Source: a virus
Taxonomy: Duplodnaviria > Caudoviricetes
DNA length: 51,194 bases
Virus record (IMG/VR): IMGVR_UViG_3300039210_000264
Coordinates: 1-51,194 of that record
Strand: one strand, 5' to 3'
The notes beneath the pieces are model-generated. The model worked only from the letters and a program-made list of their open reading frames with translations. It made no database searches and was not told the origin of the DNA. Made by a program: the position numbers and the translations under genes. Of this stretch, positions 32,933-48,293 are shown one piece after another. The number at the start of each line of letters is the position of its first letter. Position 1 is the first letter of the stretch.

Positions 32933-32933
32933 G

Positions 32934-34158: not shown

Positions 34159-35445
34159 TTAGAGGTTGCCCTTCTCGGCTCGGCTAGCCAGTGTGTCCTC
34201 GTCGAGTGCTGCCAGCGCCACTGTGGCCGCGTTCTGTACGCCCCAGGCTTCCTCCGCGCGCCGCAATATCTCCACACGATCCGAATACACCCTCGACGTC
34301 GTGCCTACGCTCTTGCCGTCGTATTCCACTTCTAAGACCTGGGGCATCGCCAGCCGCGCGCAATAGACCATCAGATCGTTTTCGTACTCACAGGCCAGGA
34401 TGAGCGCGTCCATTTCATCGTGCATGGGCAGTCCCCAGGCCCGGCGCACGTCGGCCATGATATAGCCCTTATTGAGCGCGAGCGCCATCATGCGCACGTG
34501 CTCCATGTCGGCCAGTGGCATGGATACGCCGGCGATCACGTCTTGATCTCCATACACGCGCACAGCCTCGACCAACGCCGCCTGTACAACCTTCACGCGC
34601 TTGGTGCGCGCTTTGCCCTCGGCCATCCCCGCGCGCTTCTCATCCTTGCGCTTGGCCTCCAATTCCTCAACCGGGATGCCTGCCCGCGCTGCCTCCATTT
34701 CGGCATTCTGCTGGGCATACTTCTTCGCATCTTCTTGGTGCTGACGGTACCACTTCTGAACAGACTGGATGCCCTGTATGTCGGTCTCTGCGACGCGCAC
34801 CGACGACTCTTTTCCGACCCATTGTGCCGCTTGGTCGGCTTGCCAGTCGGCGATCGGCGTTTCCTTACCGAAGTCGTCAATCGGCGGCTCCTCGACTCTC
34901 AGGAGCGCCATGCCGTGCCCCGCGGACAGCCGCCCGTCGGCGATGTAGTCGAGCACCTTATCGGGCAGTCTCAACAGCCTCAGCAGGTTCGCCAGCGCCG
35001 GCTGCGACATCCCCAGCTTCGAAGCCAGCGTAGCCTGTGTCAGCTCCGGGTGCGCCTCCCTCAATCGCTTGCACGTCACGGCTAGGGCGACCGGGTTGAT
35101 GTCCTTGCGCTGGATGTTGCTCACCAACCTCTGTATCTCACCCTGCAACTGGCCGGGGGCCTCCACGACCACACAAGGCACGCTCCCCAGCCCCGCCAGC
35201 AGCGCCGCCGCCGCTCGCCTATGCCCTGAGTTGATGTATGTGTGGCCGTGCTTCCTGTAGACCCTCAGAGGCTCCAGGATGCCCACCTGCCGGATGCTCT
35301 CCACCAACCCCGCGAGGTCGGCGTCGCTCTCCGGCGTGATCTCCCCGTGCTCGTTATTCGGGTCGTTCTTCAACACGGCAGGGTCAATCCACGCCACCGC
35401 CATGCCCCCCTCAGTCGCCGCCGGGTGTTCTAAAGTGTTTGTCAT
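34159..35445 (-). CDS. parB: ParB/Spo0J/Noc-family protein (CTP-binding domain plus HTH), no partner ParA
   Basis: LVESIRQVGILEPLRV..SGHRR..SNIQRKDINPV; HTH TQATLASKLGMSQPALANLLRLLRLP...GRLSAGHG. Start placed at the ATGA overlap. Confidence 0.92.
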   Translation of the reverse strand: MTNTLEHPAATEGGMAVAWIDPAVLKNDPNNEHGEITPESDADLAGLVESIRQVGILEPLRVYRKHGHTYINSGHRRAAAALLAGLGSVPCVVVEAPGQLQGEIQRLVSNIQRKDINPVALAVTCKRLREAHPELTQATLASKLGMSQPALANLLRLLRLPDKVLDYIADGRLSAGHGMALLRVEEPPIDDFGKETPIADWQADQAAQWVGKESSVRVAETDIQGIQSVQKWYRQHQEDAKKYAQQNAEMEAARAGIPVEELEAKRKDEKRAGMAEGKARTKRVKVVQAALVEAVRVYGDQDVIAGVSMPLADMEHVRMMALALNKGYIMADVRRAWGLPMHDEMDALILACEYENDLMVYCARLAMPQVLEVEYDGKSVGTTSRVYSDRVEILRRAEEAWGVQNAATVALAALDEDTLASRAEKGNL

Positions 35446-35729
35446 TTTTCTTCCTCTCGTCGAGCAGCGCCGTCTGTCTCCACCGTGAATGCAGCGTCTG
35501 TGATCAGCGGTTGCAGATATCCGCTGGGGTTCTTTGGTTTTGGGGGCGCGCTCAGTTCCTCTGAATAATGACTGCCCCGGCGGATGAGCTTCATCTCGGC
35601 CCCCGGCGCGGCATATTTCAGCATGCACGCCCTACATAAGCGCGCTCCCGTGCCGGGCACCGTCAGCTCCCTCTCTGTGTCGCCCAACACACGCTGGCAC
35701 AGATCGCATCTCTTCGGTAGTGGTAGCAT
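35442..35729 (-). CDS. Small Zn-finger (ClpX-ZBD-like) protein, translationally coupled to parB
   Basis: RCDLC...LTVPGTGARLCRAC; AGGGAGG RBS. Confidence 0.7.
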   Translation of the reverse strand: MLPLPKRCDLCQRVLGDTERELTVPGTGARLCRACMLKYAAPGAEMKLIRRGSHYSEELSAPPKPKNPSGYLQPLITDAAFTVETDGAARREEEK

Positions 35730-35741
35730 CTCGATCCTCCC

Positions 35742-35757
35742 TATTTGACGTGAAATA
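35742..35757. promoter_or_regulatory. parS/NBS-hybrid site 1
   Basis: tatttgacgtgaaata, 15/16 to TATTTCACGTGAAATA; abuts the RBS of the gene upstream of parB. Confidence 0.7.
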
Positions 35758-35760
35758 ACT

Positions 35761-35834
35761 CGTTGGGGTTGGCGCCGCCAGTGGGTTCGACCAACGCCGT
35801 GATAGCGGGCAGACTATCGCACGACTGACGGCGG
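35761..35834 (-). ncRNA. Putative structured intergenic RNA element
   Basis: 10-bp closing stem cgccgtcagt/actggcggcg (one G-U), inner hairpin cgtg.gatag/ctatcacg, possible gttgg/ccaac pseudoknot. Confidence 0.4.
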
Positions 35835-35849
35835 ATAATTGGCTCTGTT

Positions 35850-36227
35850 CTACGAACTCTTCCGCTGCTTATTTGCCTGCCAGATCGTCCTGTACCCCAG
35901 CCACTCCGGCGGCTCGCACTCGTTCGAGGACAGCCACTGCTCCACCGTCAATGCCTGCGCGCTCTTGACCCCATCGAGGTGCGGCGCCGGCGGGCCTTCG
36001 TGCCACACCACCACCACAGGTACGGGCGCGCCTACTCTCACCCCTTGCGACCGTACCGCAGGCTCGATCTTATCCCGCGCCTGGGTAGCGGCGCGAGCGG
36101 CGTGCAAGCCTTCAACCCCCCGATGGGCCTGAGCGTCAGCGCGCTTGATCCACAGACCGCATGCCGCCAGCATGGCGATCACCAGCAGCACCACGTCGAC
36201 CCCCGATAGATTACGTATCACATCCAT
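35850..36227 (-). CDS. Membrane-anchored hypothetical protein
   Basis: N-terminal VVLLVIAMLAACGLW; GGGGGAG RBS. Confidence 0.65.
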   Translation of the reverse strand: MDVIRNLSGVDVVLLVIAMLAACGLWIKRADAQAHRGVEGLHAARAATQARDKIEPAVRSQGVRVGAPVPVVVVWHEGPPAPHLDGVKSAQALTVEQWLSSNECEPPEWLGYRTIWQANKQRKSS

Positions 36228-36254
36228 CTCACTCCCCCCACTCTCTATAGCGCC

Positions 36255-37256
36255 CTAAAAATCAACCTCTGCGGCGTTTGCCCCGTCCACACCCTCAGCG
36301 ACCACCGACGATGGCTCCGCCTCTAGTTTCTCGACTATATTCCGCAGGTGCTTCACCACCTGCATCTTGTCCGTCAGGTTCAACTCGGCGAACTTGGTGG
36401 ATGCCCCGCCCAGCGCCGCCTTGTATTGCGCGATCAGCTGCGCCGTTGTCCACCCGTGAGACCGCAGCGTCTTCCAGTGCTCATGGTATTCGTCCATCAT
36501 GCCCAGGTCGCGTTCGGGCTGCAGGCCCCCCAAGCCCACCAGGCGCGAGGGTTCGACGAAGACGATCTCCCCGGTCACTACGTCCACCGGCTCGCCCGAC
36601 GACGTGCGCTTGCGTGCCGGAGGCGTTACATCCCTCACCGCGCGCTGCTGGTTGTCCGCCTGCTCCATCTCCTCCGTCGTATATAGGCCGCTCGTCTCCG
36701 CCGGAAACGCCTTGCGCAAGGCGGCGCTTTCTCCACACTTTCCAAGCATGACGTGTGGCTTCGAGGCCCACATATGCGTCGGGCTGCCATCTCGCTTGCG
36801 CGCCACGTATTCCGAGTACATCACTGTGCAGGCTACCTCGTGCCACTCCCCCCGAACCCACTTCATGACGTACGCCGTCGCGCTCACCAGTTGCCCCCCC
36901 TCGTCGTACTTAAAGAGCGTGTCCGCCCCCGGCGCATAGTCCCCGGTGCGATCCGCCACCAGTCGCAAGCCGTGGATCGAGACCTGGATTTTCATCACCT
37001 CAGTCTTGCTATCCGCGTCCCACCGCTTTATGGCGTATATCTGGTCAGCAAAAGGATCGAGGCCCGTCTGGTTGCATCTGCTCACGAACAGCACAAGCTC
37101 GTCGTCGGTCGCTCCCTTCGCAATCGTCCGTTTGATAAGCTCTATCCGCTCCGCGCTCAGACCACTGCCACCTGACTGCTGCTCCGTTTGCAGCGCTGTA
37201 ATTGATGTCACGTTGTCTTTCATCCTGCTTACCCCTTTCAGGTCTATGACCTGCAT
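36255..37256 (-). CDS. bet: Single-strand annealing recombinase (Bet/RecT family)
   Basis: GATDDEL.LF...GLDPF..QIYAIKR..QVSIHGLR..A.RTG...W...PHVMLGKC.ES.ALRKAFP..SGLYT.EEM. Confidence 0.93.
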   Translation of the reverse strand: MQVIDLKGVSRMKDNVTSITALQTEQQSGGSGLSAERIELIKRTIAKGATDDELVLFVSRCNQTGLDPFADQIYAIKRWDADSKTEVMKIQVSIHGLRLVADRTGDYAPGADTLFKYDEGGQLVSATAYVMKWVRGEWHEVACTVMYSEYVARKRDGSPTHMWASKPHVMLGKCGESAALRKAFPAETSGLYTTEEMEQADNQQRAVRDVTPPARKRTSSGEPVDVVTGEIVFVEPSRLVGLGGLQPERDLGMMDEYHEHWKTLRSHGWTTAQLIAQYKAALGGASTKFAELNLTDKMQVVKHLRNIVEKLEAEPSSVVAEGVDGANAAEVDF

Positions 37257-37267
37257 ATCTGCGTCGT

Positions 37268-37687
37268 TTATGCTTGCGCTTCGAGAAGAAGGTTCTCTTC
37301 GTTCGCTTCGATCAGCTTGCGGATCACGTTCTTCTGGCCCCGAACGATCTTCTCCAGCCGCGCCTTCTCCCCTGTCAGGTCTTCCACATCGCGTTGGAGC
37401 TTCCGGTAACGCAACTGGCTGATCTGCACCGTGCTGCCGTGTGCCAGCCTTATCTCCCCTTCTCCCGGTAGCTCCTCAAGCGTCGGACGATGCACCCGAA
37501 TATCCCTGGCCTCGTACTGCTTCGTGAACGCGCTCCACGCGCCCTTAGCCAGCCTGTAGCCCGCGCCCACTTTCAGGTCGAGCACGATCTCGGCTTCCTG
37601 CACGGTGATCCACTCTTTGCGGCGGATGCCTTCCAGCACCTGTCGCATATTGGCCCCCTCACTTCTCAGCTTCTCGCTCCATCTCAT
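37268..37687 (-). CDS. Excisionase-like HTH protein with coiled coil
   Basis: WITVQEAEIVLDLKVGAGYRLA...IRVHRPTLE. Confidence 0.55.
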   Translation of the reverse strand: MRWSEKLRSEGANMRQVLEGIRRKEWITVQEAEIVLDLKVGAGYRLAKGAWSAFTKQYEARDIRVHRPTLEELPGEGEIRLAHGSTVQISQLRYRKLQRDVEDLTGEKARLEKIVRGQKNVIRKLIEANEENLLLEAQA

Positions 37688-37831
37688 CGCATCGTCCTCC
37701 GTGGAAAACTTGTACTGCTCGTCCCAACTGTGCTACTCTTAGCGGGACGTATCAGGTTTGCTCACAACGCAGCCGAAGCCGTCACGTGAGGGGGTTGCGG
37801 TATGGACGCAGCTCCCTCTCCTCATACCCAC

Positions 37832-38155
37832 CTAAGCCGCCAGGTCGTCGCTGTCTCCCCCATCCTCTTGCACAGCGCGCCTGCTCTCCACGTACCCACG
37901 CACGGAGTAAATGAGGTGGTGGTTCAGCGCCACCTTCACCCCGCGCCGCCTGATCTGCCCGCACGCCTGGTCTATCAGCACGCAGTGATAGGTCTTGTCC
38001 ACAGCTTCCTGCGCCGCCCCCAAAACCCCCTGGTACTCCCCGTCGGTAACGAGCGCCCCGCCCGGACTGCTCACGCGCCCGGCCTGCACCAGCTTCGCCA
38101 CAACCTCCAACGCCGCGCCTTCCGCGATCTCGCTCTGAAACTCTCCTAAAGCCAT
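37832..38155 (-). CDS. Hypothetical protein
   Basis: ORF with RBS in the early operon. Confidence 0.6.
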   Translation of the reverse strand: MALGEFQSEIAEGAALEVVAKLVQAGRVSSPGGALVTDGEYQGVLGAAQEAVDKTYHCVLIDQACGQIRRRGVKVALNHHLIYSVRGYVESRRAVQEDGGDSDDLAA

Positions 38156-38213
38156 CCTCTTTGACCCCCTTTCTTTGTGAAGTGACGTGACCGTCTTTAC
38201 CAGCGCCGGATGA

Positions 38214-38729
38214 CTACCCCAACGAACTGGCCGCTACTACCTCACCCGCTTCTTCGTCTTCGTCTTCGTCTTCGTCCAAATCCCAATCGTTGGGATACGT
38301 TACGAACGCCCCCAGGTTGGCCGCCTTCGCCCACTGAATAGCCTCTTTGTCGTGGACTTCCGGGTGCTCACTCTGACCGGCCAGCGCTACCTGCAACCGG
38401 ACGACCGCCTCCGCCACGCAGTACGCGATCCAAACCTGGTTGAAAGGTGAGACCTTGCCCGTCACCATCTTTGGCTCCGTGGTAAGTGTCCGGCGCACCA
38501 TCTCGAACGCTTTCCGTGTGCGTATCACAACGCCCGTGATGTCGAGCCACAGCAGGCCGCCATGAAACGGCTCGTCAACGTAGCGCACCACCATCTCGAA
38601 GCCCTCAGCTATACGCCCGTCGTCCGGGCACCACTTGTCCCACCAGCGCAGGGAATTGCCCACGATCCGCTTCGCGTTCTCCCACGTCGGCTCTTCCAGG
38701 CTCCGTATCATCTCGTCAATCTCGCTCAT
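38214..38729 (-). CDS. Hypothetical protein with acidic tail
   Basis: Start MSEIDEM at an ATGA overlap with the HNH stop. Confidence 0.7.
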   Translation of the reverse strand: MSEIDEMIRSLEEPTWENAKRIVGNSLRWWDKWCPDDGRIAEGFEMVVRYVDEPFHGGLLWLDITGVVIRTRKAFEMVRRTLTTEPKMVTGKVSPFNQVWIAYCVAEAVVRLQVALAGQSEHPEVHDKEAIQWAKAANLGAFVTYPNDWDLDEDEDEDEEAGEVVAASSLG

Positions 38730-39229
38730 TGCGTTTCCTCTGCCGGTATATGCTTCCAAAGTCGCCCGGCAATTACCTTGCTTATGCAGCTCGCATTCAC
38801 CCCATATTCTGAGGCGAGCGCGGCGCCCGTAGCCCCGTGCTTGTGCCCGGCACGTATACCGAGCACCTTCTCGACAGTAAGTTTCGCCCTCGGATGGGCC
38901 TCGCCGCGTACCGCCCGTCCTTTCTCTGCCATATCTCGCATATTGTCCGCTTGCGTGCCCAAAAACAGGTGGCTCGGTCGCACACACGCGGGGCTATCGC
39001 ATAAGTGAAGGACCCCCAGCCCGTCAGGGATGGCTCCGTTCACCGATTCATACGAAAAGCGGTGTGCCCTACCAGGGGCCCATTTGGTGCCTTCCTTCGT
39101 GTTGAACTGCCCGTAGCCATTCCAGGATTTACCAGCGGTCCAAAGCCAGCAACTCTCTGTCTTGTTCACCTTGTCCCAAAACCGTCTGCCCAGTTCCATG
39201 TCATTGGCCTCAGATTTCGATGGATCCAT
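38726..39229 (-). CDS. Free-standing HNH endonuclease with C-terminal HTH
   Basis: RFWDKV..CWLW..GYG..RAHRFSY..VLHLCD.PACVRPSHL.LGT.ADNMRDM..KGR..AKLT. Confidence 0.93.
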   Translation of the reverse strand: MDPSKSEANDMELGRRFWDKVNKTESCWLWTAGKSWNGYGQFNTKEGTKWAPGRAHRFSYESVNGAIPDGLGVLHLCDSPACVRPSHLFLGTQADNMRDMAEKGRAVRGEAHPRAKLTVEKVLGIRAGHKHGATGAALASEYGVNASCISKVIAGRLWKHIPAEETQ

Positions 39230-39279
39230 TGATGGAAAAGCCTCCGCACCACTGTATAGTGGTGTTGGAGGTCGTCATT

Positions 39280-39840
39280 CTATGCAACTAACGCCGCTAA
39301 CTCATAATCTTCCAGGTCCAGCTCCATAGCGCTCAGAAAGCTCGACATGGGCGTTGCTGAGCATACCTGGCATACCTGTGCGTCTGGGTCGTTTTGGCAA
39401 CCACAGCGCCCGCAGATAAGCGGCAACTCGGCAAGCGATATAATCTCGCCCGTCTCTGCATCAACCCTTCTGTGCATGGAAGCACGCCTCGTGCTGTCAG
39501 CTATACGTCGGGCCGCTGCTCTCGATGCCTTCGCCGCGTGGTCGCATGGCTTGCCGTTGAGGGCGGCCATACACTCACAGGTGGCCCACAGGCCCTTGAC
39601 GTAGGAGTGGCCACCATGTAGTAGGCTCTTGTAAACGTACTGGTGGTAGCCGTGCTGTATCCCGCTGGTGCTCTTTACGTAGAAGACCAGCGCGCCCGTG
39701 CGAGGGTTCTGTCCGACCCATTGTGCATAGTGCTCACGGCGGGTGGCGCGCTCAAGTGCTGTCTCGATGCGAGCCTCCAGCGTATAAGCGGGGCGGGTGG
39801 ATTTCATTGCTTGTTTGCGGAATGTTGCTGTTGCGGTCAT
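39280..39840 (-). CDS. SWIM zinc-finger protein with C-terminal zinc ribbon
   Basis: TCECMA....PCDH (SWIM) and CGRCG..N....CQVC. Confidence 0.75.
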   Translation of the reverse strand: MTATATFRKQAMKSTRPAYTLEARIETALERATRREHYAQWVGQNPRTGALVFYVKSTSGIQHGYHQYVYKSLLHGGHSYVKGLWATCECMAALNGKPCDHAAKASRAAARRIADSTRRASMHRRVDAETGEIISLAELPLICGRCGCQNDPDAQVCQVCSATPMSSFLSAMELDLEDYELAALVA

Positions 39841-39895
39841 GTTTGGCTCCTTTGCTTGGTATGGACTTGAAAGGATGTGTTTGTTGATTGGTGTT

Positions 39896-40099
39896 TTAGC
39901 CGACGCTGCTGAGGACGCGCTCTTGACGTGTGCGGAGTTCCATAATTTGGCGACGAAGCACCTCGGCCAGGGTGATCCCCGCCAGGGTCGCAGCGCTATC
40001 AACAATGCTGTAAAGCTCCGGCGATACCCACACCTGCATCAGGATCGTATTAGGGTTCGCTACCTTGCGGCTTGGTTTGCGTGTTTTCGTCCCTGCCAT
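39896..40099 (-). CDS. Ribbon-helix-helix regulator (Cro/Arc-like role)
   Basis: MQVWVSPELYSIVDSAATLAGITLAEVLRR; divergent from the repressor. Confidence 0.75.
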   Translation of the reverse strand: MAGTKTRKPSRKVANPNTILMQVWVSPELYSIVDSAATLAGITLAEVLRRQIMELRTRQERVLSSVG

Positions 40100-40103
40100 T
40101 GTC

Positions 40104-40313
40104 TTATCTCCTACCAGCCAGGTTGTGCCTGGCTTTCATGTACGCCGGGTAAGTCGCGTCCCAATACTTGTCGGTTGCCAACTGCTTGACCGGCTTCGGC
40201 TCTAGGCCAGCTGCTTTGTCCGCTTCTCGCTGTGCCAGTACGCGGCAGATAAACAGTTGGCATGAAGGGCCGTGCTTGCAGTTGCTTGTGGTTTCGGTTG
40301 GGGTGCTCGTCAT
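40104..40313 (-). CDS. Hypothetical protein, first gene of the early lytic operon
   Basis: GGAG RBS downstream of a consensus promoter. Confidence 0.6.
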   Translation of the reverse strand: MTSTPTETTSNCKHGPSCQLFICRVLAQREADKAAGLEPKPVKQLATDKYWDATYPAYMKARHNLAGRR

Positions 40314-40357
40314 TGTGAACTCCGATATTTCCTCTATTCGTTCTGCTGTCTATGACC

Positions 40358-40386
40358 ATTATATCAGATATATATGCAGTTGTCAA
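40358..40386 (-). promoter_or_regulatory. Early lytic promoter (perfect sigma70 consensus)
   Basis: TTGACA-17 bp-TATAAT with TGn. Confidence 0.9.
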
Positions 40387-40425
40387 TAGGTAAATCGAGA
40401 TTGGTATAGGGAATAACGAAAATGG

Positions 40426-40454
40426 TTACACTATATAGCGCACATAGATATAAT
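40426..40454 (+). promoter_or_regulatory. Repressor promoter, probably leaderless transcript
   Basis: TTACAC-17 bp-TATAAT; ATG begins 6 nt after the -10 with no SD. Confidence 0.75.
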
Positions 40455-40460
40455 GAATAT

Positions 40461-40928
40461 ATGGCTGTTACGGAGGATAGGGTGCTCCCCTTTGGCGCGG
40501 CGTTGCGATTTTGGCGTAAGCTCCGCGGTTTCAAGCAAGGCGCCCTGGCGCAGGCTTTGGGCATTACGCAGAGCACGTATTCAGGTTGGGAACGCCAGTC
40601 AGAGCCGCCACGGAACACGTTGGCAGTTGCGCAGTTGGCTGTCCTGCTGGGTGTAGAATATGAAGCGTTGAAGGAAGGGCGGATTGAGATGCCCGCGATA
40701 GCTGCGATTCAAGTATCAGAGCAGGACATGATCGAGACTATCGCTCGCCAGCGTGGTATCAGTCCTGAATTACTAAGGGACTGGATTATCGCGCTCATTG
40801 TTATGCCAGCAGAAACCCAGGAGATCGAGGTGGAAGGCGCACGTCTAAAGACACGTCTGTGGCAAAAGCAGCATAAACGCCTGAACGAGGCAAACGCTGA
40901 ATACAACGCTGAGATTGAAGAAGGCTAG
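40461..40928 (+). CDS. Immunity repressor (XRE-family HTH)
   Basis: FGAALRFWRKLRGFKQGALAQALGITQSTYSGWERQSEPP...LAVLLGV; no S24 peptidase domain. Confidence 0.88.
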   Translation: MAVTEDRVLPFGAALRFWRKLRGFKQGALAQALGITQSTYSGWERQSEPPRNTLAVAQLAVLLGVEYEALKEGRIEMPAIAAIQVSEQDMIETIARQRGISPELLRDWIIALIVMPAETQEIEVEGARLKTRLWQKQHKRLNEANAEYNAEIEEG

Positions 40929-40931
40929 AAC

Positions 40932-41246
40932 ATGGAGAAGCTACCACGCAAATACCTGCTACTGCATCCGGCAGTAGTGCCCGCCAAGTGGCTGGAGCTT
41001 GCCGACATTCTGACAGACATGGACACGGCGGCAGCGCACGAAGTAGTAGAGGGCGCACAGGCCCGGGCCTGGTGGGCAGGGTGGAGTGACGTGCGCCCGC
41101 CGAACACGTATGTAAGGGTGCTAGGTAGCCCACCACCAGCCGACTTCGACGCGCTGTGCATTGACGACACCCTACACCGCGCTTATAATCGTGGCACTGA
41201 CACCCACCAATCGACACCTTCGCGCCATAGCCATACAGTCGTATAG
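40932..41246 (+). CDS. Hypothetical protein in the lysogeny operon
   Basis: Starts 3 nt after the repressor stop. Confidence 0.55.
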   Translation: MEKLPRKYLLLHPAVVPAKWLELADILTDMDTAAAHEVVEGAQARAWWAGWSDVRPPNTYVRVLGSPPPADFDALCIDDTLHRAYNRGTDTHQSTPSRHSHTVV

Positions 41247-41362
41247 GGAGGAACACATGTACAAACAACCAAACCAACCTCAGCAGGCGCCAACAGCAGC
41301 GCTGGTCGAGCAAATAGCCAGCGCCACTAAGTGTGCTAATATAGGGCAGTAGGGAACAACCA

Positions 41363-41752
41363 ATGCAAATAGTACAATCTGCTATCGGCTTCTTGCGTGT
41401 GATAGGCTGGTTCGTGCTGGTGGGTGCACTCATATTCAGCGCCGTCTATCTATTCAGTGGGCTGGGTAATGTGACGGATGCCTATAAAGGGCTTTACCTG
41501 CTTCTAGCCGTGAGCATCCTGTTAGGTGGAATATTCGTGTGGGCGGTCTGCATTACGCTGGCGGCCATTACGGAGAACTCTATTGTCAGCCGCGACATAC
41601 TACAGCATGCAGGGCTGCGGTGGCTACGCGAGCGTGCGCACGCCGAGCTACCCCTACGCTATCAGATATACGATAACCACGCAGACCCCGTTGTAAAGCC
41701 TGCCTATCGTGATACGCGCGTAACCCGCCACGCTTTAAGTAAAATCACGTAG
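41363..41752 (+). CDS. Two-TM membrane protein (possible superinfection exclusion)
   Basis: Two hydrophobic helices; located between repressor and integrase. Confidence 0.65.
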   Translation: MQIVQSAIGFLRVIGWFVLVGALIFSAVYLFSGLGNVTDAYKGLYLLLAVSILLGGIFVWAVCITLAAITENSIVSRDILQHAGLRWLRERAHAELPLRYQIYDNHADPVVKPAYRDTRVTRHALSKIT

Positions 41753-41764
41753 GGGTACACAGCC

Positions 41765-42925
41765 ATGCCAAGAACCAGGAAACGTCGGCACAGGGCCAGT
41801 GGCGAAGGCACGATCTTTCAGCGCAAGGATGCCCGTTGGGTCGCCCAGACAGCGCCCCTGCCCCATCTCAATGGCGAGCGCAAAGCCTTCTACGGCAAGA
41901 CCTCGCAGGAGGCCCGCGAGAAACGCGCTGCGTACCTGGCAACCCTCCCCCGGCAGGCCAACCTCTCCTCGCAAAACTGGACGCTCGACGAGTGGATGGA
42001 CTACTGGCTCGAAAACGTAGTGCGCCGGAATCGCCGCGCCATCACACATCGAAATTATGAAGTCGTTATCACCAACCACATCGTCCCCCTCCTGGGCCAC
42101 CTCCGCCTACGCGAGCTTACCCTGCCCCACATAGAGAATTGGCTTGCCGAACTCCATACGGCACACCACCTGTCGAGCCAGTCAATACGCAACGTTTACG
42201 CCGTGCTCAGGGCTGCTCTCAACCATGCAGTCAAATCCGACCTCGTAATTCGCAACGTCGCTACCCTGGCCGATATGCCCAGGAGCGATACCCACAAGGC
42301 CCGACACCTTACCCCAGTTGAGTCCCGCGCGCTCCTGCGGGCCGTAAAGGGCGACCGCCTCGAAGCCCTGTTCGTCTTGTGCCTCTCCCTGGGCTTGCGT
42401 CGTGGCGAGGTGCTGGGCCTCACCTGGGACGACGTAGACCTCGACAAGGGCATCGTTCATATTCAGCACACCCGCTATCCCGTCAGAGGCGCCGACATAA
42501 TCGAAAACCCGAAGACCAGGGCCTCGCAGAGACACCAGGGCCTACCCAGCGTCACCCGCCAGTCGCTCCGGACGCACCGTGCCCGCCAGCAGCAAGAGCG
42601 CCTAAGACTGGGCGCCAAATGGCGGGGGCAGAACTATGTGTTCACCAATATCCGGGGCGCGCCCATGTCCACCAACATGTTCCGCTACCACCTCGACAAG
42701 GCTGTGAAGCGAGCGGGCATCGAGTCGTTGCACATCCACGGTCTGCGTCACACCGCCGTCTCGCTCATGATCAGGCAAAAGGTGGACATCAAAGTGATCT
42801 CCGAGGCTATAGGCCACACCAACATCGCCACTACGCTCGACATCTACGGTCACGTTTACGATGAGCAGCGCCGAGAAATGGCCGAGGCAATGGACGCGAT
42901 CCTGACCGACGAAAACATAATTTAG
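41765..42925 (+). CDS. int: Tyrosine integrase (ICEBs1/Tn916-like with arm-binding domain)
   Basis: GEGTIFQRKDARW arm domain; catalytic GLRRGE, PKT, HGLRH, GH, IY. Confidence 0.96.
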   Translation: MPRTRKRRHRASGEGTIFQRKDARWVAQTAPLPHLNGERKAFYGKTSQEAREKRAAYLATLPRQANLSSQNWTLDEWMDYWLENVVRRNRRAITHRNYEVVITNHIVPLLGHLRLRELTLPHIENWLAELHTAHHLSSQSIRNVYAVLRAALNHAVKSDLVIRNVATLADMPRSDTHKARHLTPVESRALLRAVKGDRLEALFVLCLSLGLRRGEVLGLTWDDVDLDKGIVHIQHTRYPVRGADIIENPKTRASQRHQGLPSVTRQSLRTHRARQQQERLRLGAKWRGQNYVFTNIRGAPMSTNMFRYHLDKAVKRAGIESLHIHGLRHTAVSLMIRQKVDIKVISEAIGHTNIATTLDIYGHVYDEQRREMAEAMDAILTDENII

Positions 42926-43004
42926 GGGCGTGTTGCTGTCAGGTCGCTGTCAATTCGTTGTTCCAAACCTACCCACCCACCCCAGAGAGGCCGAAATCAG
43001 GCAC

Positions 43005-43034
43005 AAAAATAGCGCCCAGCAGTGGAGCGCTATT
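43005..43034 (-). terminator. Intrinsic terminator
   Basis: Minus strand aatagcgctcca-ctgc-tgggcgctattttt. Confidence 0.75.
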
Positions 43035-43068
43035 CAGTTAGGGTACATTCTACTATATTACGCGACGA

Positions 43069-43162
43069 TTCCTTCGAGGGCAACTTAACTAAGCCTGGTG
43101 CATGGGAGTTGCACTATTTGGGGGTGCAGCCCCTCCAAAGGCCGGGCTAATTAACCGAGGAA
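43069..43162 (+). ncRNA. Putative structured RNA (three-way junction) inside attP
   Basis: Nested pairing ttccttcg/cgaggaa, ttaactaagcctgg/ccgggctaattaa, hairpins gtgca/tgcac and tttggggg/ccctccaaa; TATATT at 43054-43059. Confidence 0.5.
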
Positions 43163-43223
43163 CAGAGGGCTACGCTGTCAAGATGCTGTCATCCGGCACT
43201 GTCGTCAACGGTTGCCAGATACA

Positions 43224-43433
43224 TCAACGAGCCGCATACTCGTTCAGCCGCCGCAGAGCCTCACGTACACCACGCGACAAGTAGCCGCCGCCTAGCTCGC
43301 GGAGCTGGTCGGCGTCCTCGGCTGTCATGGTGAGCGTGTGCTTTGTCATCCGAGGCACACCCGTTTCTTCCGCGCTCTTCCGGCCAGCGCCGGGTCGCTT
43401 GCCTCCGTGTCTAATGTTGATAGTCTTCGTCAA
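43224..43433 (-). CDS. Small DNA-binding protein (GGKRPGAGRK motif plus RHH)
   Basis: HGGKRPGAGRK...KHTLTMTAEDADQLRELGGGYLSRGVREAL. Confidence 0.75.
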   Translation of the reverse strand: MTKTINIRHGGKRPGAGRKSAEETGVPRMTKHTLTMTAEDADQLRELGGGYLSRGVREALRRLNEYAAR

Positions 43434-43656
43434 TTTGCGGCCCCCCTTTTCTCCCCTCTATTATACGCTCATGGGCCGCCTCGCACTCTTCGCAGAAATA
43501 GTAGAAGGAGATGCCCTTCACCCCGCCGGCGTTCCAACGCACACTATTGCAAACCACAGCGCGCGCTTCGCAAATGACGCCCTATTGGTACCCCTGGCAT
43601 TTGATCCTCGGTTGATCCTCCACCTGGAGGGTGCGGCGTTCCGTAATACTTGCCAT
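43411..43656 (-). pseudogene. Small Cys-rich gene with internal TAG at codon 25
   Basis: AAAGGGGGG RBS; MASITERRTLQVEDQPRIKCQGYQ*GVICEAR...YFCEECEAAH...; stop at 43582-43584. Confidence 0.6.
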
Positions 43657-43674
43657 TGCCCCCCCTTTCGAGTT

Positions 43675-43699
43675 GGGCGCGATCGTGGTGGCCGCGCCC
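43675..43699. repeat. Intergenic GC hairpin repeat, copy 1
   Basis: gggcgcgatcgtggtggccgcgccc; 22/25 identical to 44100-44124. Confidence 0.85.
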
Positions 43700-43709
43700 T
43701 GGCTTTTGT

Positions 43710-44078
43710 CTAAGCACACAGCCGGCAGTGGTGATCCTGCCAATCATCGCACTTGACCACGAACGGCGTGCTGACCCACACCGGATGCTCTATGCACTTG
43801 ACTATGGCGGCCGGTATGCGCTCCGGCTCGACCCAGCATATCGTCAACGACTCCAACTGCTCGACCATGTATAGGCCCTCGCCCCCGGCCAGCACCCTGC
43901 AAATCGCCAGCTCCGACCCGCTGCCATCGAACGCATCGTTGAGCAGCAGGTACGTCGTCCCCTCGTGTTCGACCCTGTAGCTGTTGCAAGCCACCCAGGA
44001 AGCCGTACGCTCGAAGTCCGCCTTGATCTCTTCCAGCGTGGCCGGCTTCACACTAAACCGCCGTATCTTGTGTATCAT
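43710..44078 (-). CDS. Hypothetical accessory protein
   Basis: AGGAG RBS; YLLLNDAFDG...EQLESLT motif; C-terminal HCRLCA. Confidence 0.8.
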   Translation of the reverse strand: MIHKIRRFSVKPATLEEIKADFERTASWVACNSYRVEHEGTTYLLLNDAFDGSGSELAICRVLAGGEGLYMVEQLESLTICWVEPERIPAAIVKCIEHPVWVSTPFVVKCDDWQDHHCRLCA

Positions 44079-44099
44079 CGTCTTTCTCCTATGGATGTG

Positions 44100-44124
44100 G
44101 GGCGCGGTCGCGGGGGCCGCGCCC
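44100..44124. repeat. Intergenic GC hairpin repeat, copy 2
   Basis: gggcgcggtcgcgggggccgcgccc. Confidence 0.85.
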
Positions 44125-44132
44125 TGCTACTG

Positions 44133-44849
44133 CTATCTAAACGCGACCCAGAGATCGCATCCCAGTCCTACCACAGCCCGCGTACCCGCCGTGCCGATGC
44201 CCATGCGATTGGTTTTACGGACGGGCGATCCCTCTTTTAGAAGAGGCCACAATTCGTTGATGTAATCTGTCCAGTCATCATGCCGACTCTTTGTGAAGTC
44301 TGTATTGAGGAAAAACAGCCGCCCCATTCCGTCAACAGCATCCGGCGACTCCGTCCCGTAATACTCCCCGGCAAACCGACCCTCGAAGAAATACCGCGCC
44401 AGGTTGTCAACGTGTTCTACCGCGCAAGGTTTGGATGTCATGAGCGCCAGCCCGTACCCGTCGCTCTCGAAACTCTTGTAATCGTACCAACTGTGCTCCC
44501 CATCCGGGCACACGTCCGGGTTCTGGTCCAGCCACCCCGCGAAACTGACCTCATCTCGAAACCACGCCGGCAGCTTCTCGCCTATCAAAAAGCGCTGTAC
44601 CTCTACGATCTCGCCACACTCGAACGCCGACTCGAAGAACACTCGGAACGAATAGGCATCCTGCCTATCGACCTGGACTTGTAGGAGCGCTAGCGCCCGC
44701 TCGGTGCAACGGTACGCCATACCGTCTATAGCAAACGTGCATTCCCGCCCGCAACTGTGAGCGAGGGGAGGCATCAAGGCTGTGCCACACGCAGGGCAGT
44801 GAATTACAACCGCCTTGCTTTTCGTTGATTCTCTTGATATAATCTTCAT
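44133..44849 (-). CDS. Hypothetical acidic/aromatic accessory protein with N-terminal CPAC..H.C
   Basis: Start MKIISRES after AAAGGAG. Confidence 0.8.
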   Translation of the reverse strand: MKIISRESTKSKAVVIHCPACGTALMPPLAHSCGRECTFAIDGMAYRCTERALALLQVQVDRQDAYSFRVFFESAFECGEIVEVQRFLIGEKLPAWFRDEVSFAGWLDQNPDVCPDGEHSWYDYKSFESDGYGLALMTSKPCAVEHVDNLARYFFEGRFAGEYYGTESPDAVDGMGRLFFLNTDFTKSRHDDWTDYINELWPLLKEGSPVRKTNRMGIGTAGTRAVVGLGCDLWVAFR

Positions 44850-44934
44850 TGCAATCTCCTTTACCGGGGTTGTGTGCGGACGGTGTGGCCTCAAGAACTA
44901 AACCGTCCGCTTTTCTTATTGTTTCTACCTTATA

Positions 44935-44963
44935 AGTATATCATACTTTTATCAAGATTGCAA
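44935..44963 (-). promoter_or_regulatory. Strong sigma70 promoter of the accessory operon, with overlapping inverted repeat
   Basis: TTGCAA-17 bp-TATACT with TGn; AAGTAT-gat-ATACTT overlaps the -10. Confidence 0.82.
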
Positions 44964-45134
44964 GGGTTTTAGGCACGAATATCCGATATTCGTTTGCTTG
45001 CCGTGCCTGTTTTGGGCAGCAAAAAGCCCGCCTTGCCAGCCGGCCCGCCAGAGCGTAAAATGAAGACCACCGCACCGGCCCACATAGAGCCGGTCATTCT
45101 TCGCTATTGCACTGCACCAGGAGGCCCCCACGCC

Positions 45135-46649
45135 ATGCCGGAACAAGAACCCGCACAAGTAGCCAATACCCTATACTACGGCGACAACCTGCCTATCCTG
45201 AAAGAGCATATACGCACCGAGTCTGTAGACCTCGTATATCTCGACCCGCCCTTCAACTCGAACCGCAACTACAACGTCCTCTTCCGCGACGAGAGGGGCA
45301 CCGAGTCGGAGGCGCAGATCACAGCCTTCGAGGACACCTGGCACTGGGGAGAAGACGCCGAGCGCACCTACCACGACCTCGTGACCGGCGCGCCCGACCG
45401 CGTGTCAAAGATGATAGCCGCCCTGCGAGACTTCGTAGGCACTAATCAGATGATGGCCTACCTCGTGATGATGGCCGCCCGCCTGGTCGAGCTTCACCGC
45501 GTCCTAAAGCCTACGGGGAGCCTGTACCTCCACTGCGATCCCACGGCAAGCCACTACCTGAAGATAATGTTGGACGCGTTATTTGAGCCGATGAACTTTA
45601 GGAATGAAATCATTTGGAGCTATAAAAGGTACACAGCGAGCAGCAATAGGTTTCAGCGTCTCCATGACGACATCCTACTTTACGGCAAAGGTCAGCAGGT
45701 TACTTTCAATGACATTAGAGAAGAATATGGTGAGAAATCGGGCGTTGCTGACTCTCACTATAAGCAAGATGAAGATGGTCGTTGGTATCGTTGGCAGAAG
45801 CGACGGGGTCAGGAAGCGTATAAGGTTTATCTGTCAGAAGGCCGTCGTTTGGGTGACGTATGGGAGATACCAATCATCAATGCATCAGCGAAGGAACGAC
45901 TCGGCTACCCCACCCAAAAACCTCTCGCCCTCCTGGAGCGCATCATCGAGGCGAGCAGCAACCCCGGCGACGTCGTGCTCGACCCCTTCGCCGGGTGCGG
46001 AACGACCGTAGCCGCCGCTCAGAAGCTCGGCAGGCGCTGGATAGGCATAGACATCACCCATCTCTCCATCGCCCTCCTCAAATACCGTCTGGTGGCGATG
46101 TACCCCGGCATTACGTTCAAGGTGGTGGGTGAGCCGCCAGACATCGGTGCAGCTCGTCAGCTTGCGCAGGATGACCGCTACCAGTTCCAGTGGTGGGCGC
46201 TCTCACTCGTGCACGCCAAGCCCCTGGGCGGCCAGGAGGGGAGCAAAGAGGGCAAGAAGGGGTCTGACCGTGGCATAGACGGCGTGATCAACTTCTTCGA
46301 CGACAACACGGGCAAGCCCAGGCGCGTGCTGGTGCAGGTCAAGAGCGGGCACGTCAAGTCAGGCGATGTGCGCGACCTCCGGGGCACAGTCGAGCGAGAG
46401 GGCGCAGCTATGGGCGTCTTCATCACCCTCGAAGCCTTCACCAGCGAGATGAGCAGGGAGGCAGTCAGCACCGGCTACTACACGTCCGAGGGCTGGGGGA
46501 AAGACTACCCGCGCATCCAAATCCTCTCCATCGCCGACCTGCTCCGTGGTGCCGAGGTCAAGATGCCGCCCGCGTTCGGCACATTCAAGGAAGCGCAGCG
46601 TGTCAAGGCGCAGGGCCAGCAGTTGGGGTTCGGCGAACTGGACGATTAG
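45135..46649 (+). CDS. Beta-class N6A/N4C DNA methyltransferase fused to an Mrr-like PD-(D/E)xK domain
   Basis: YLDPPF, YPTQKP, LDPFAGCGTT; C-terminal DRGIDG...VQVKSG; AGGAGG RBS. Confidence 0.93.
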   Translation: MPEQEPAQVANTLYYGDNLPILKEHIRTESVDLVYLDPPFNSNRNYNVLFRDERGTESEAQITAFEDTWHWGEDAERTYHDLVTGAPDRVSKMIAALRDFVGTNQMMAYLVMMAARLVELHRVLKPTGSLYLHCDPTASHYLKIMLDALFEPMNFRNEIIWSYKRYTASSNRFQRLHDDILLYGKGQQVTFNDIREEYGEKSGVADSHYKQDEDGRWYRWQKRRGQEAYKVYLSEGRRLGDVWEIPIINASAKERLGYPTQKPLALLERIIEASSNPGDVVLDPFAGCGTTVAAAQKLGRRWIGIDITHLSIALLKYRLVAMYPGITFKVVGEPPDIGAARQLAQDDRYQFQWWALSLVHAKPLGGQEGSKEGKKGSDRGIDGVINFFDDNTGKPRRVLVQVKSGHVKSGDVRDLRGTVEREGAAMGVFITLEAFTSEMSREAVSTGYYTSEGWGKDYPRIQILSIADLLRGAEVKMPPAFGTFKEAQRVKAQGQQLGFGELDD

Positions 46650-46676
46650 AGGGGTACGCTAATATACTTGGCGCAC

Positions 46677-47579
46677 CTACGAAGCCAGCCAGGCCCCCAG
46701 CTCCACGTAACATTGCGGATCGCGCATAATCATGTTCGACCAACTTTGATCCACCCGGCCATTGCTCACGAACGGGCAGAAGCTCTTGATAGGCCCTGAC
46801 CACGGCTGAGCGGCCAGTAGGTCATACATCCGCATGACGGCCAGCATCCTCTGCACGTCTGTGAGCACCATTGACTTGACCGAGATCTCGTTTATCCACG
46901 CCTCCCCTTGTATGCGCTCCAATTCAATCCCCACGCGCCACAGGAGGCGGTTCTCGTCTTCGGGACTGGTATAGCTGTGGCAGTAAGCGTGCATACCGGC
47001 AGGCCCGCCGTTGTACACCTCGCCGCACGCTCTTGCCCAACTCTGCCGGCCAGGCTCCGGCGCGTCCCTCGGGGTCAGCCTTCGGTGCGACCAGCCAGGC
47101 GCGACCGTCACGATGCCCATCGGTGTGAGCAGTTTGCGCATCTCGCCGACCGCGTACTGGTGCAGCCACAAGCGCCCCTGCGGGAAGTTGGCCTCCGGTG
47201 CGTTCCCCCATTCGTGCCCATCGCCCCGCGTCAGGTCGTACTCTATCTCCGGCTCATTCCCCGCTATTGCAGCCTCGACCACCAACCCCGGCACATCCTG
47301 CCGGATCTCGCTGAGTTGCCGGGCGATCCGCGCGCGACCGTCTGCCGTGTAGTACGAGCCGTTCACATCTTGCTGGTTGCCCCGCGACGGCTCCTCGATG
47401 CGGAATATGACCGACACGCCCTCAGCAGCCAGCCGGTGCAACTGCTCCCGCCGGTTGTAACCGACCCCCAGGAACAACTGCACGCGATGGATGCCGCTTA
47501 CAGCACGATTGTTGTGGTCCTGTTCGGCCATTTCGTCAGGGAAGAAAAGACACCACGTACCCGATTTCTTTTGCACCAA
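46677..47579 (-). CDS. Glycoside hydrolase-like protein (clan GH-A TIM barrel)
   Basis: AGNEP (acid/base), GMHAY, WINE (nucleophile). Confidence 0.7.
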   Translation of the reverse strand: MVQKKSGTWCLFFPDEMAEQDHNNRAVSGIHRVQLFLGVGYNRREQLHRLAAEGVSVIFRIEEPSRGNQQDVNGSYYTADGRARIARQLSEIRQDVPGLVVEAAIAGNEPEIEYDLTRGDGHEWGNAPEANFPQGRLWLHQYAVGEMRKLLTPMGIVTVAPGWSHRRLTPRDAPEPGRQSWARACGEVYNGGPAGMHAYCHSYTSPEDENRLLWRVGIELERIQGEAWINEISVKSMVLTDVQRMLAVMRMYDLLAAQPWSGPIKSFCPFVSNGRVDQSWSNMIMRDPQCYVELGAWLAS

Positions 47580-47588
47580 AACACCCCT

Positions 47589-47604
47589 TATTCCACGTGA
47601 AATA
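47589..47604. promoter_or_regulatory. parS/NBS-hybrid site 2
   Basis: tattccacgtgaaata, 15/16; abuts the RBS of the glycoside hydrolase gene. Confidence 0.75.
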
Positions 47605-47608
47605 CGAA

Positions 47609-47986
47609 CTATGCCGCCCGCAGCTTGCCCTCAGCCTCGATAGCCACCGCCACGCGTCCCAGGTAAGCCGACGCGAGCGCGACCGCGGCCCGTTCCATCG
47701 AGGGCCACGCCTGCAATGAGAACGCGCCGAACGTGACCCAGCCATCAGCAACCTGACGGACAGATCCCACGTGCCGGTCAAACTCGCCGTCCGCTATGCC
47801 CACCAGGTAGAGCCGAGGATCGCCGCTGCGATACAGCACGATCTCGGTCCCTACCAGGTAGAGCCTGTGGTGAACGCATATCTTCACAGGCTCCTGCCAG
47901 GCCACTTCCAGCATGTGCCGCATGCCCAGCTGGCCTTTGTGCGGGAGTTTGGTTTTGCTCATTGCGGCGGTCAGCTTGTCCATCAC
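47609..47986 (-). CDS. Hypothetical protein
   Basis: GTGA overlap with the upstream gene. Confidence 0.65.
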   Translation of the reverse strand: MMDKLTAAMSKTKLPHKGQLGMRHMLEVAWQEPVKICVHHRLYLVGTEIVLYRSGDPRLYLVGIADGEFDRHVGSVRQVADGWVTFGAFSLQAWPSMERAAVALASAYLGRVAVAIEAEGKLRAA

Positions 47987-48222
47987 GCCGCCATTCCGGT
48001 CAACGCGATCCAGGTTGCCGCATCAAGCGATAGCAGCCACACCAGAAGCCGCGCGCGCTGGGGGCCTATGCCGTTAATTGGCGTGAGGTCTTTGGGTTGT
48101 ATGCCCTTGTCGTATCGCGCCACGAGCTCAGCGCGCGACGTGATATGCAAGATAGAGATGATGATCGGTATCTGCCAGGCGTGCTGGCCGGGCGGTAAAG
48201 TCGTTGAATTGGTTGTGTTCAT
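47983..48222 (-). CDS. Small helix-hairpin-helix protein
   Basis: DLTPINGIGPQRARLL; GGAGG RBS before MNTT. Confidence 0.65.
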   Translation of the reverse strand: MNTTNSTTLPPGQHAWQIPIIISILHITSRAELVARYDKGIQPKDLTPINGIGPQRARLLVWLLSLDAATWIALTGMAA

Positions 48223-48233
48223 TTCAGCCTCCA

Positions 48234-48249
48234 TATTTCACGTGAAATA
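48234..48249. promoter_or_regulatory. parS/NBS-hybrid site 3 (perfect palindrome)
   Basis: TATTTCACGTGAAATA within the 18-bp palindrome 48233-48250; overlapped by a second inverted repeat aaatatcaat-tg-attgatattt (48245-48266). Confidence 0.8.
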
Positions 48250-48293
48250 TCAATTGATTGATATTTAGCCATCTGGCAACCGTTGGCACTTGT

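Follow-up and report, generated by a model that had tools for sequence, protein, structure and literature searches.

Three copies of a parS-like 16-mer occur in the genome of a temperate tailed phage (IMG/VR record IMGVR_UViG_3300039210_000264; the whole 51,194-bp stretch was analyzed and is called the window here), each at the head of a cistron, where it abuts a Shine-Dalgarno (SD) sequence; the recognition residues of an orphan ParB encoded by the same phage indicate that the three 16-mers are very likely the cognate sites of that protein. The sites are placed nonrandomly at the cistron heads, and all three lie inside transcription units, downstream from promoters. We tentatively favor local, stoperator-like control of the adjacent cistrons as their function, a reading that the sequence makes possible, if somewhat short of probable, and that is based on the location of the sites in gaps between cistrons, flush with the ribosome-binding site (RBS) and away from promoters.

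ParB-family CTP switches do more than segregate DNA, as KorB, Noc, VirB, and BisD illustrate, and orphan ParBs of prophages have been catalogued but are unexplained. The phage offers a defined system in which the residues of the protein predict its own variant site, only three sites are present, and the RBS-flush placement is recurrent. Should the adjacent cistrons prove to be modulated by ParB, the protein would be controlling genes in a new way, within operons rather than at promoters, and the protein and its site would make up a natural third orthogonal pair that could be useful for DNA labeling tools. If ParB has no such role, the placement would inform how phage genomes tolerate and exchange protein-binding sites at module joints.

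The three sites and the phage ParB

Site 1 (positions 35742 to 35757; minus-strand reading, TATTTCACGTCAAATA) and site 2 (positions 47589 to 47604; minus-strand reading, TATTTCACGTGGAATA) each have one mismatch to the palindrome TATTTCACGTGAAATA, which site 3 (positions 48234 to 48249) matches perfectly over 16 bp. The 16-mer departs from canonical parS only at its second and fifteenth bases, so that 14 of the 16 positions agree; it is a hybrid in that it resembles the Noc-binding site (NBS) at the outer variable base and parS at the inner one, with adenine at both. Every other 16-mer in the window differs from the hybrid consensus at five positions or more, the closest of them at five, so that there is no fourth site. 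The exact 10-nucleotide (nt) half-site TATTTCACGT occurs four times, the perfect site 3 contributing it on both strands, against 0.04 occurrences expected, and none of 100 shuffles reached four. A chance origin of the three 16-mers is excluded by these shuffle and mismatch counts.

The first-pass annotation had stated that each site abuts an SD sequence, that each keeps a perfect half-site on its upstream side, and that two of the sites are 645 bp apart, and all of this was borne out. Reading along the minus strand, site 1 is followed directly (0 nt) by GGGAGG, 6 nt, and the ATG at position 35729, with 12 nt from site to start; site 2 is followed at 0 nt by AGGGG and by a TTG at 47579 or a GTG at 47576, 9 or 12 nt away; and site 3 is followed by 1 nt, GGAGG, and the ATG at 48222, with 11 nt from site to start. 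The upstream half-site is perfect in both imperfect sites (sites 1 and 2), site 3 being fully palindromic, and sites 2 and 3 are the pair separated by 645 bp. In the two long gaps, of 120 nt (site 1) and 71 nt (site 3), the site occupies the extreme RBS-proximal end, with 92 nt upstream versus 12 nt downstream and 44 nt upstream versus 11 nt downstream, respectively. The gap that holds site 2 is only 29 nt long, and the site begins 4 nt past the stop codon of a 125-amino-acid (aa) gene, so that its adjacency to the SD sequence is forced. Uniform placement within each of the three gaps gave a combined p of 0.011. A search for a second motif common to the three site regions found none; one 8-mer is present in two of the three regions only. 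As a separate observation, the upstream end of site 3 is overlapped by 4 nt by a second palindrome (positions 48246 to 48265; AATATCAAT CA ATTGATATT, with 9-nt arms and a 2-nt spacer), which is unique in the window and may bind another protein.

Site 1 heads the operon that leads into parB, as had been proposed from the sequence, and thus occupies an autoregulatory position. The first gene past it, orf95 (35442 to 35729, minus strand), encodes a 95-aa zinc-ribbon-like protein with a CxxC...CxxC pattern and a weak match to a GATA zinc finger (E = 0.055); its TGA forms an ATGA overlap with a parB-frame ATG at position 35445. The parB gene itself (34159 to 35445, minus strand) encodes 428 aa from that ATG, and the database gene call places the start 14 codons later, giving 414 aa; orf95 and parB form one unit whichever start holds.

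The phage ParB contains a ParB_N domain (PF02195; 31.9 bits against a cutoff of 26.3, and 35 bits in a six-frame search) and a helix-turn-helix (HTH) domain of the HTH_ParB family (PF17762; 60.7 bits; E = 1.7e-16), the latter modeled at a predicted local distance difference test (pLDDT) score of 84-95; the N-terminal part also gave a good model. By sequence, the protein matches Bacillus subtilis Spo0J (6sdk; 1.8e-25), Noc (7ng0; 2e-14), and KorB (8qa8; 2e-9). At the specificity positions, in Caulobacter numbering, the protein has Q173, L179, R184, and G201. For the outer variable base, Q173 variants have been described as favoring adenine, and for the inner one, R201 as picking cytosine; a basic residue (Lys or Arg) at position 179 or 184 is described as permissive (PMC7383237). 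Q173 together with G201 and a basic residue at 184 thus predicts a site that is NBS-like outside and parS-like inside, which is the hybrid site found in the window.

The canonical CTP motifs are absent from all three boxes, with NEHG in place of QPR (box I), GHRRAAAA in place of GERRxRAA (box II), and SNIQR in place of ENxQR (box III); box II retains its RR, within a GxRR core, and box III retains N..R. The protein database yielded one full-length relative, P0003 (35% identity), and since it carries every one of the same changes, they are a trait of the subfamily and not decay. Our literature search found no account pairing "GHRR" with ParB. With motifs this divergent, a sliding clamp is an assumption, although KorB, which is without the Glu of GERRxR, nevertheless hydrolyzes CTP (PMC11790492). 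The C-terminal half is long and unrelated to that of chromosomal ParB; it gave no Pfam match to the dimerization domain PF23552, and the C-terminal 150 residues, the last third, were modeled at pLDDT <50. The ParA-binding motif LG[KR]GL, as defined in PMC12704722, is absent from the N terminus, and no ParA-type ATPase was found in six frames of the window; with an integrase present, this agrees with the earlier description of the phage as having an integrase and no ParA, and the missing motif disfavors the recruitment of host ParA that had been offered as an alternative. In a separate metagenome scan with the ParB/P0003 alignment, 79 of 80 loci, mostly from gut (L208-L287), belonged to a GH[RT]R/DSNIQRED ParB-like family whose HTH is unlike that of ParB and Noc, and no hybrid sites were found at those 79 loci. 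The window ParB combines an N domain of the GH[RT]R-family type with a canonical ParB/Noc-type recognition helix.

We also considered that the sites act independently of ParB, as an RBS-side RNA element or as a target for some other factor, or that AT-rich palindromes have turned up in intergenic DNA by coincidence. In favor, transcription passes through the sites, an SD sequence stands beside each, and RBS-linked repeats do exist, such as the start-associated sequences of Cluster K mycobacteriophages (PMC3203893). However, RNA folds of the three regions were no more stable than those of shuffled sequences (z scores of +1.9, +1.0, and -0.3) and had no structure in common, no Rfam match was found, and chance is excluded by the half-site and mismatch counts. 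The agreement with canonical parS and the covariation of residue 173 in all of the phage ParBs compared below (10 of 10) likewise argue against this explanation, which we consider highly improbable.

Transcription through the sites and comparison with known regulators

The nearest strong promoter upstream from site 1 is a consensus sigma-70 promoter (TTGACA-17-TATAAT with TG; 40358 to 40386, minus strand) that faces the early operon and lies 4.6 kb away, which leaves site 1 inside the operon. A perfect or near-perfect sigma-70 promoter on the plus strand (41161-41189) was also found by the promoter scan. The scan, which covered sigma-70 promoters, detected none near the three sites, and no terminator adjoining any of the three was found in a scan. 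A promoter in or overlapping the 16-mer was considered and rejected, both by eye against the -35/-10 consensus and by the scan. Because no promoter was found near the sites while promoters were found at 40.4 and 41.2 kb, a roadblock fits better than promoter occlusion. The region from 40000 to 41750, in which the two consensus promoters face apart in a stretch of lower GC content, also contains open reading frames (ORFs) of 84, 91, and 210 aa with no family matches and an odd composition; it is probably a regulatory switch region, possibly with small or noncoding products.

In the mechanism that we propose, the phage ParB would bind the three 16-mers as cognate nucleation sites and, positioned at a cistron head and perhaps spreading briefly, would hinder RNA polymerase arriving from upstream. 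Binding would thereby lower expression of the downstream cistrons, namely, orf95-parB, by autoregulation, and three post-lysis genes, a damping that might operate, for example, in the prophage. The post-lysis genes are a 79-aa gene (47983 to 48222, minus strand) downstream from site 3, the 125-aa gene (47609 to 47986, minus strand) between sites 3 and 2, and a 300-aa gene (46677 to 47579, minus strand) downstream from site 2 that is assigned below to the glycoside hydrolases (GH). The endolysin, an N-acetylmuramoyl-L-alanine amidase (48705 to 49607, minus strand), is transcribed ahead of sites 3 and 2, so that local control there would be limited to the three post-lysis genes. The control of distal lysis genes that the first-pass annotation had suggested is thus narrowed: the amidase is upstream of both sites, but the three genes beyond it, one of them of clan GH-A, are within local reach.

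The same annotation had proposed a silencer resembling KorB of RK2. KorB has been described as acting from 12 palindromic operators, with its OB sites 4-10 bp or 45 to >1000 bp upstream from promoters and with KorA locking the clamp (PMC11790492). By analogy, the phage protein would load as a CTP clamp at its sites, slide over kilobases, and be locked by a partner at distant promoters for long-range silencing. Both are ParB-family HTH proteins with palindromic sites on a mobile element, the Glu of GERRxR is replaced in both, the ParB_N fold and the GxRR core are kept, and the match to KorB 8qa8 has an E value of 2e-9; the phage protein is an orphan ParB without ParA, a small zinc-ribbon protein is cotranscribed with it, and each of the other three long phage ParBs that were examined (P0003 and those of G002 and G005) carries a fused zinc ribbon. 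KorB, in contrast, partitions with IncC, a ParA, and the phage sites are RBS-flush and downstream from the only recognizable promoters; since they lie inside operons with no promoter near, they are not operators in the KorB sense. Boxes I and III are without the canonical QPR and ENxQR residues, the dimerization domain went undetected in a C-terminal third of low model confidence, and no second operator-type motif is common to the three regions. As for the partner, orf95 is a candidate by position only; comparison with the zinc ribbon of the G005 protein was not significant (E = 0.13), and the idea that orf95 is a split-off of that fused zinc ribbon was dropped. What stands of the KorB-like proposal is therefore the site positions and the autoregulatory site; the promoter geometry speaks against it, the clamp would have to work with divergent CTP motifs, and long-range silencing of this kind appears unlikely.

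The stoperators of mycobacteriophage L5 (Cluster A), the closer parallel for the stoperator-like control that we favor, probably block RNA polymerase during elongation; they are asymmetric, oriented with transcription, bound by the immunity repressor, and present in ~20-30 copies per genome. They have been described as transcription-regulating 13-bp sites (PMC3203893). The hybrid sites resemble them in occurring as multiple copies in short intergenic gaps inside operons and off promoters, here and in other phages, and differ in being palindromic, parS-like, and only three in number and in having as their predicted binder a ParB of the replication module. The start-associated sequences of Cluster K phages are described as a motif a few nucleotides from many start codons that is conserved among related phages before unrelated genes and whose function is unknown (PMC3203893); unlike the sites in the window, they are asymmetric, contain the SD sequence, and lie 3-7 bp from the start, whereas here a palindrome that matches a known protein-binding site class stands 5' of a separate SD sequence.

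Spo0J and Noc give the closest sequence matches, and the 16-bp palindrome, the Q173 of Noc type, and the G201 of ParB type relate the phage system to both. It differs from them in that its specificity is hybrid, its parB gene belongs to an integrating phage, and no clustering of the sites at an origin is seen; Noc is marked by Q173, K179, K184, and R201 with cytosine at the inner variable base, where the phage has Q, L, R, and G with adenine. BisD (ICEclc) and VirB (Shigella) are further ParB-like CTP-binding transcription controllers on mobile elements; in the available text on them, they activate or antisilence from sites upstream of promoters, and RBS-flush sites are not described. Prophage-encoded proteins make up ~1% of ParB homologs, and orphans on mobile elements without a ParA-binding motif are reported as uncharacterized (PMC12704722); the available portions of that source give no sites, site placement, or hybrid specificity for the prophage orphans. 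Our literature searches turned up neither phage ParBs of hybrid specificity nor ParB sites flush with an RBS.

Hybrid sites and Q173 ParBs in other genomes

The exact 16-mer TATTTCACGTGAAATA was present in 64 stretches of IMG/VR, and several unrelated contigs with a GC content of 45-56% carry 3-5 copies. A placement survey of all site-bearing viral loci and this window, made with crude longest-ORF calls, placed 47 of 74 sites in intergenic DNA, compared with 9.4% of windows (p = 4e-30); this count is a lower bound, since the crude calls score sites 2 and 3 of the window as inside genes. An SD sequence and start codon followed within 30 nt at 24 of the 47 intergenic sites (51%) but at only 359 of 2400 random intergenic windows drawn from these loci (15%; odds ratio, 5.9; p = 1e-8), and the gap from site to SD sequence, judged by eye, was 0-5 nt in 14 of these 24. 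Among the genes headed by sites are terS (G003, G004, G005, and L059), primase (G001), integrase (G002), and a capsid-region gene (G002). A frequent order is an intrinsic terminator, its T-run, the site, 3-5 nt, and the SD sequence (G004, L044, L059, L016, L011, and L064).

When viral and genome contigs were searched with ParB and TerL, no close relative of the phage was found; GenBank phages gave matches to the ParB core at 43% identity or less. Conservation of placement was assessed via the loci of homologs of the GH gene and via the unrelated site-bearing phages. Two Chloroflexia contigs (L330 and L331) have, in order, an amidase homolog, a homolog of the 125-aa gene, a small membrane gene, and a GH homolog, and they carry TATTTCACGACAAATA, in which the upstream half-site is perfect and 2 mismatches are present. 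AGGAG follows this sequence at 0 nt, and the membrane gene starts with an ATG 11 nt from it; the other four GH-homolog loci have no such site. We take this prophage site as modest support for conserved placement. Site position, whose conservation the first-pass annotation had named as a check, recurs in other phages, both in the RBS-adjacent sites of the survey and in the degenerate site flush with an SD sequence in the Chloroflexia prophage.

Several points weigh against regulation at cistron heads. CTP-loaded ParB clamps are dynamic, and they are not known to be efficient barriers to RNA polymerase. Two of six conserved DNA-contact residues, as listed in PMC7383237, are altered in the phage protein (K171M and R204M). 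The survey depends on crude ORF calls, and near-duplicate contigs (e.g., L041/L047 and L064/L070) inflate its counts; three sites have a stop codon before them and a terminator after them, and ~9 lie inside parB, so that neither group is at a cistron head. The degenerate site in L330/L331 could be due to chance, with ~0.02 such sites expected in 81 kb by hand arithmetic, and the metagenome-assembled genome (MAG) of the Chloroflexia prophage shows no Q173 ParB. In addition, mosaic joints occur at the sites. Downstream from sites 5871 and 6328 of G001 (L076), the sequence is identical, while upstream it is different; at G004 9306, L044 3957, and L059 2053, the terminator and site are common, and divergence follows immediately. 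The history of recombination and the tolerance of the genome for such sites, and not regulation, could thus account for the placement. A further joint at the 16-mer was seen between G005 28435 and L059, identical on one side and unrelated on the other, and the hybrid site may be a module boundary for phage mosaicism.

These points bear on a simpler explanation, in which the 16-mers are plain loading sites: ParB would nucleate and spread there to organize phage DNA (condensing or segregating circles, engaging host SMC, or serving replication) without effect on expression, and the RBS-flush position would reflect only which spots in a compact genome can accommodate a 16-mer, together with recombination at shared sites. 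Consistent with this, parB belongs to the replication module here, in the order orf95, parB, a 360-aa gene, the replication-initiator/HNH gene, and the DnaD-like gene, and likewise in G002 and G005, where it adjoins a helicase loader or primase; many phage parB genes hold an internal site, as chromosomal parB genes do; and the sites between stop codon and terminator, the joints exactly at sites, and the forced adjacency at site 2 all fit. Tolerance does not readily account for sites that hug the SD sequence even in long gaps, as at sites 1 and 3 and comparably in other phages, or for the excess of RBS-adjacent sites over random intergenic windows. Nor does the protein have a partner ParA or the motif to bind one, and a phage that integrates has no need of plasmid-style partition. 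On balance, plain loading seems somewhat unlikely, and stoperator-like control at cistron heads remains the reading that we prefer.

The pairing of protein and site extends to other phages. Q173 is present in all 10 of the HTH-type phage or prophage ParBs encoded on hybrid-site contigs, with G or S at position 201 (this phage, G002, G005, L031, L050, L026, L037, G168, G169, and a prophage in G009). In 8 or 9 of the 10, the site or a near-site with 1-2 mismatches is found inside parB, in the codons just before G201. The Syntrophomonadaceae MAG G009 encodes a chromosomal ParB with R173, a Noc-like protein with QKRR at the specificity positions, and a prophage ParB with QRKG, with hybrid sites on the contig of the latter; as predicted from these residues, the phage pair adds a third specificity that is orthogonal to those of the host ParB and the Noc-like protein. 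The chromosomal ParBs of four Chloroflexia MAGs with a GH homolog have R173, and these MAGs have no Q173 ParB. In a 151-genome sample of the phylum of one Chloroflexi-labeled MAG, a tally that takes in the unpublished G160, on which no conclusion rests, 57 genomes had an exact parS-class match; among the matches listed, all were canonical except that MAG's own, and 56 further matches are unlisted. The ParB of the window phage and its sites are, on these residue assignments, probably orthogonal to the ParB of the host.

Some site-bearing phages encode no ParB, which raises the possibility that the hybrid site is a shared address through which the ParB of a resident prophage excludes or controls other phages. 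G004 (L082-L084), a 39.9-kb temperate phage that is complete (CheckV, 100%) and has a serine integrase, carries three perfect sites (one preceding terS and the other two following a minor head gene and the endolysin, respectively) and encodes no ParB_N or HTH_ParB domain; four further site-bearing fragments are without ParB. Identical terminator-plus-site modules are found in different phages, and in the Firmicute host, the specificity is orthogonal to both the host ParB and the Noc-like protein. Set against this, G004 is the only complete record without ParB, among 15 site-bearing records that were examined, 10 have a ParB gene, and the window phage has its own ParB and does not need the model. 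We regard such use in trans as very unlikely. A broader form of the idea combines it with stoperator-like control: temperate phages of several host phyla would share a third orthogonal ParB/Noc specificity (Q173 and G201 with TATTTCACGTGAAATA) and use it as stoperator-like addresses at operon heads, in their own genomes and in other phages, including those without ParB, giving cross-phage silencing or immunity in trans. This, too, appears improbable.

The hybrid 16-mer was also seen beside chromosomal genes. Twelve chromosomal-looking ParBs with Q173 and G201 adjoin the exact 16-mer (L132, L151, L114, L153, L102, L120, L158, L127, L154, L188, L193, and L117); their MAGs are labeled Armatimonadetes/Armatimonadota, "Ca. 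Fervidifonticultor," or Chloroflexi or carry no label, and in all five of the genomes checked, the hybrid is the sole parS-class site at one mismatch or fewer. This suggests, from the pairing of residues and sites, that whole lineages may use the hybrid 16-mer as their native parS. R173 has been described as absolutely conserved in extant ParB orthologs (PMC7383237), and the chromosomal ParBs with Q173 run counter to that description. In five Bacillaceae loci (L166, L138, L140, L159, and L173, from Ornithinibacillus, Cerasibacillus, and relatives), the exact hybrid 16-mer lies in the origin region between a noc-like gene (QKKR) and parB (R..G), and there both the Noc-like and the ParB proteins may see a mixed-type site.

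The phage genome and the genes headed by the sites

The record is complete by CheckV estimate (100%) and has a GC content of ~59%. The terminase, portal, major head, and tape-measure genes are all on the minus strand of the window, and the further genes include the amidase endolysin, RecT, HNH nucleases, the replication-initiator/HNH gene, a DnaD-like loader, and a tyrosine integrase (41765 to 42925, plus strand), whose profile match marks an integrating temperate phage. The best identities of the integrase are at or below 34% and spread over many phyla, which makes it uninformative for the host, and no tRNA that could serve as a lead to attP was found in the window. All six genome relatives of the 300-aa gene beside site 2 are labeled Chloroflexia MAGs (42-62% identity), and Chloroflexia is for this reason our best guess for the host. 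The public runs that carry the phage are soil-metagenome DNA contigs, with no RNA run listed among the holders.

Of the labels given to the genes downstream from sites 2 and 3, that of glycoside hydrolase is supported by fold. The 300-aa protein has no Pfam or PHROG match but contains an invariant GNEP and a second invariant Glu, and its AlphaFold model (pLDDT 94; 23-sequence alignment) gave a fold match to GH128 (6uax; E = 2e-8), with further matches to PslG and GH5 entries, which are TIM barrels of clan GH-A; the model thus points to a (beta/alpha)8 glycoside hydrolase of that clan. The label "HhH" for the 79-aa gene did not hold up: no family match was found, and the name derives from a GIGxxxA-like motif seen by eye alone. 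The 125-aa gene likewise had no family match in profile searches and has a weak homolog in the Chloroflexia prophage locus L330.

Two gene fusions were observed in the window. In the part of the replication module at 31497-32950 (minus strand), one gene joins 90 N-terminal residues from a replication-initiator family with an HNH nuclease (171 aa), and a separate 313-aa DnaD-like or initiator-like gene follows it, an arrangement that looks like an HNH-interrupted or remodeled initiator gene. On the plus strand (44994-46649), an N6/N4 DNA methyltransferase carries a fused Mrr-like or inactive restriction-endonuclease domain, and its gene runs convergently toward the glycoside hydrolase gene that lies immediately downstream from site 2.

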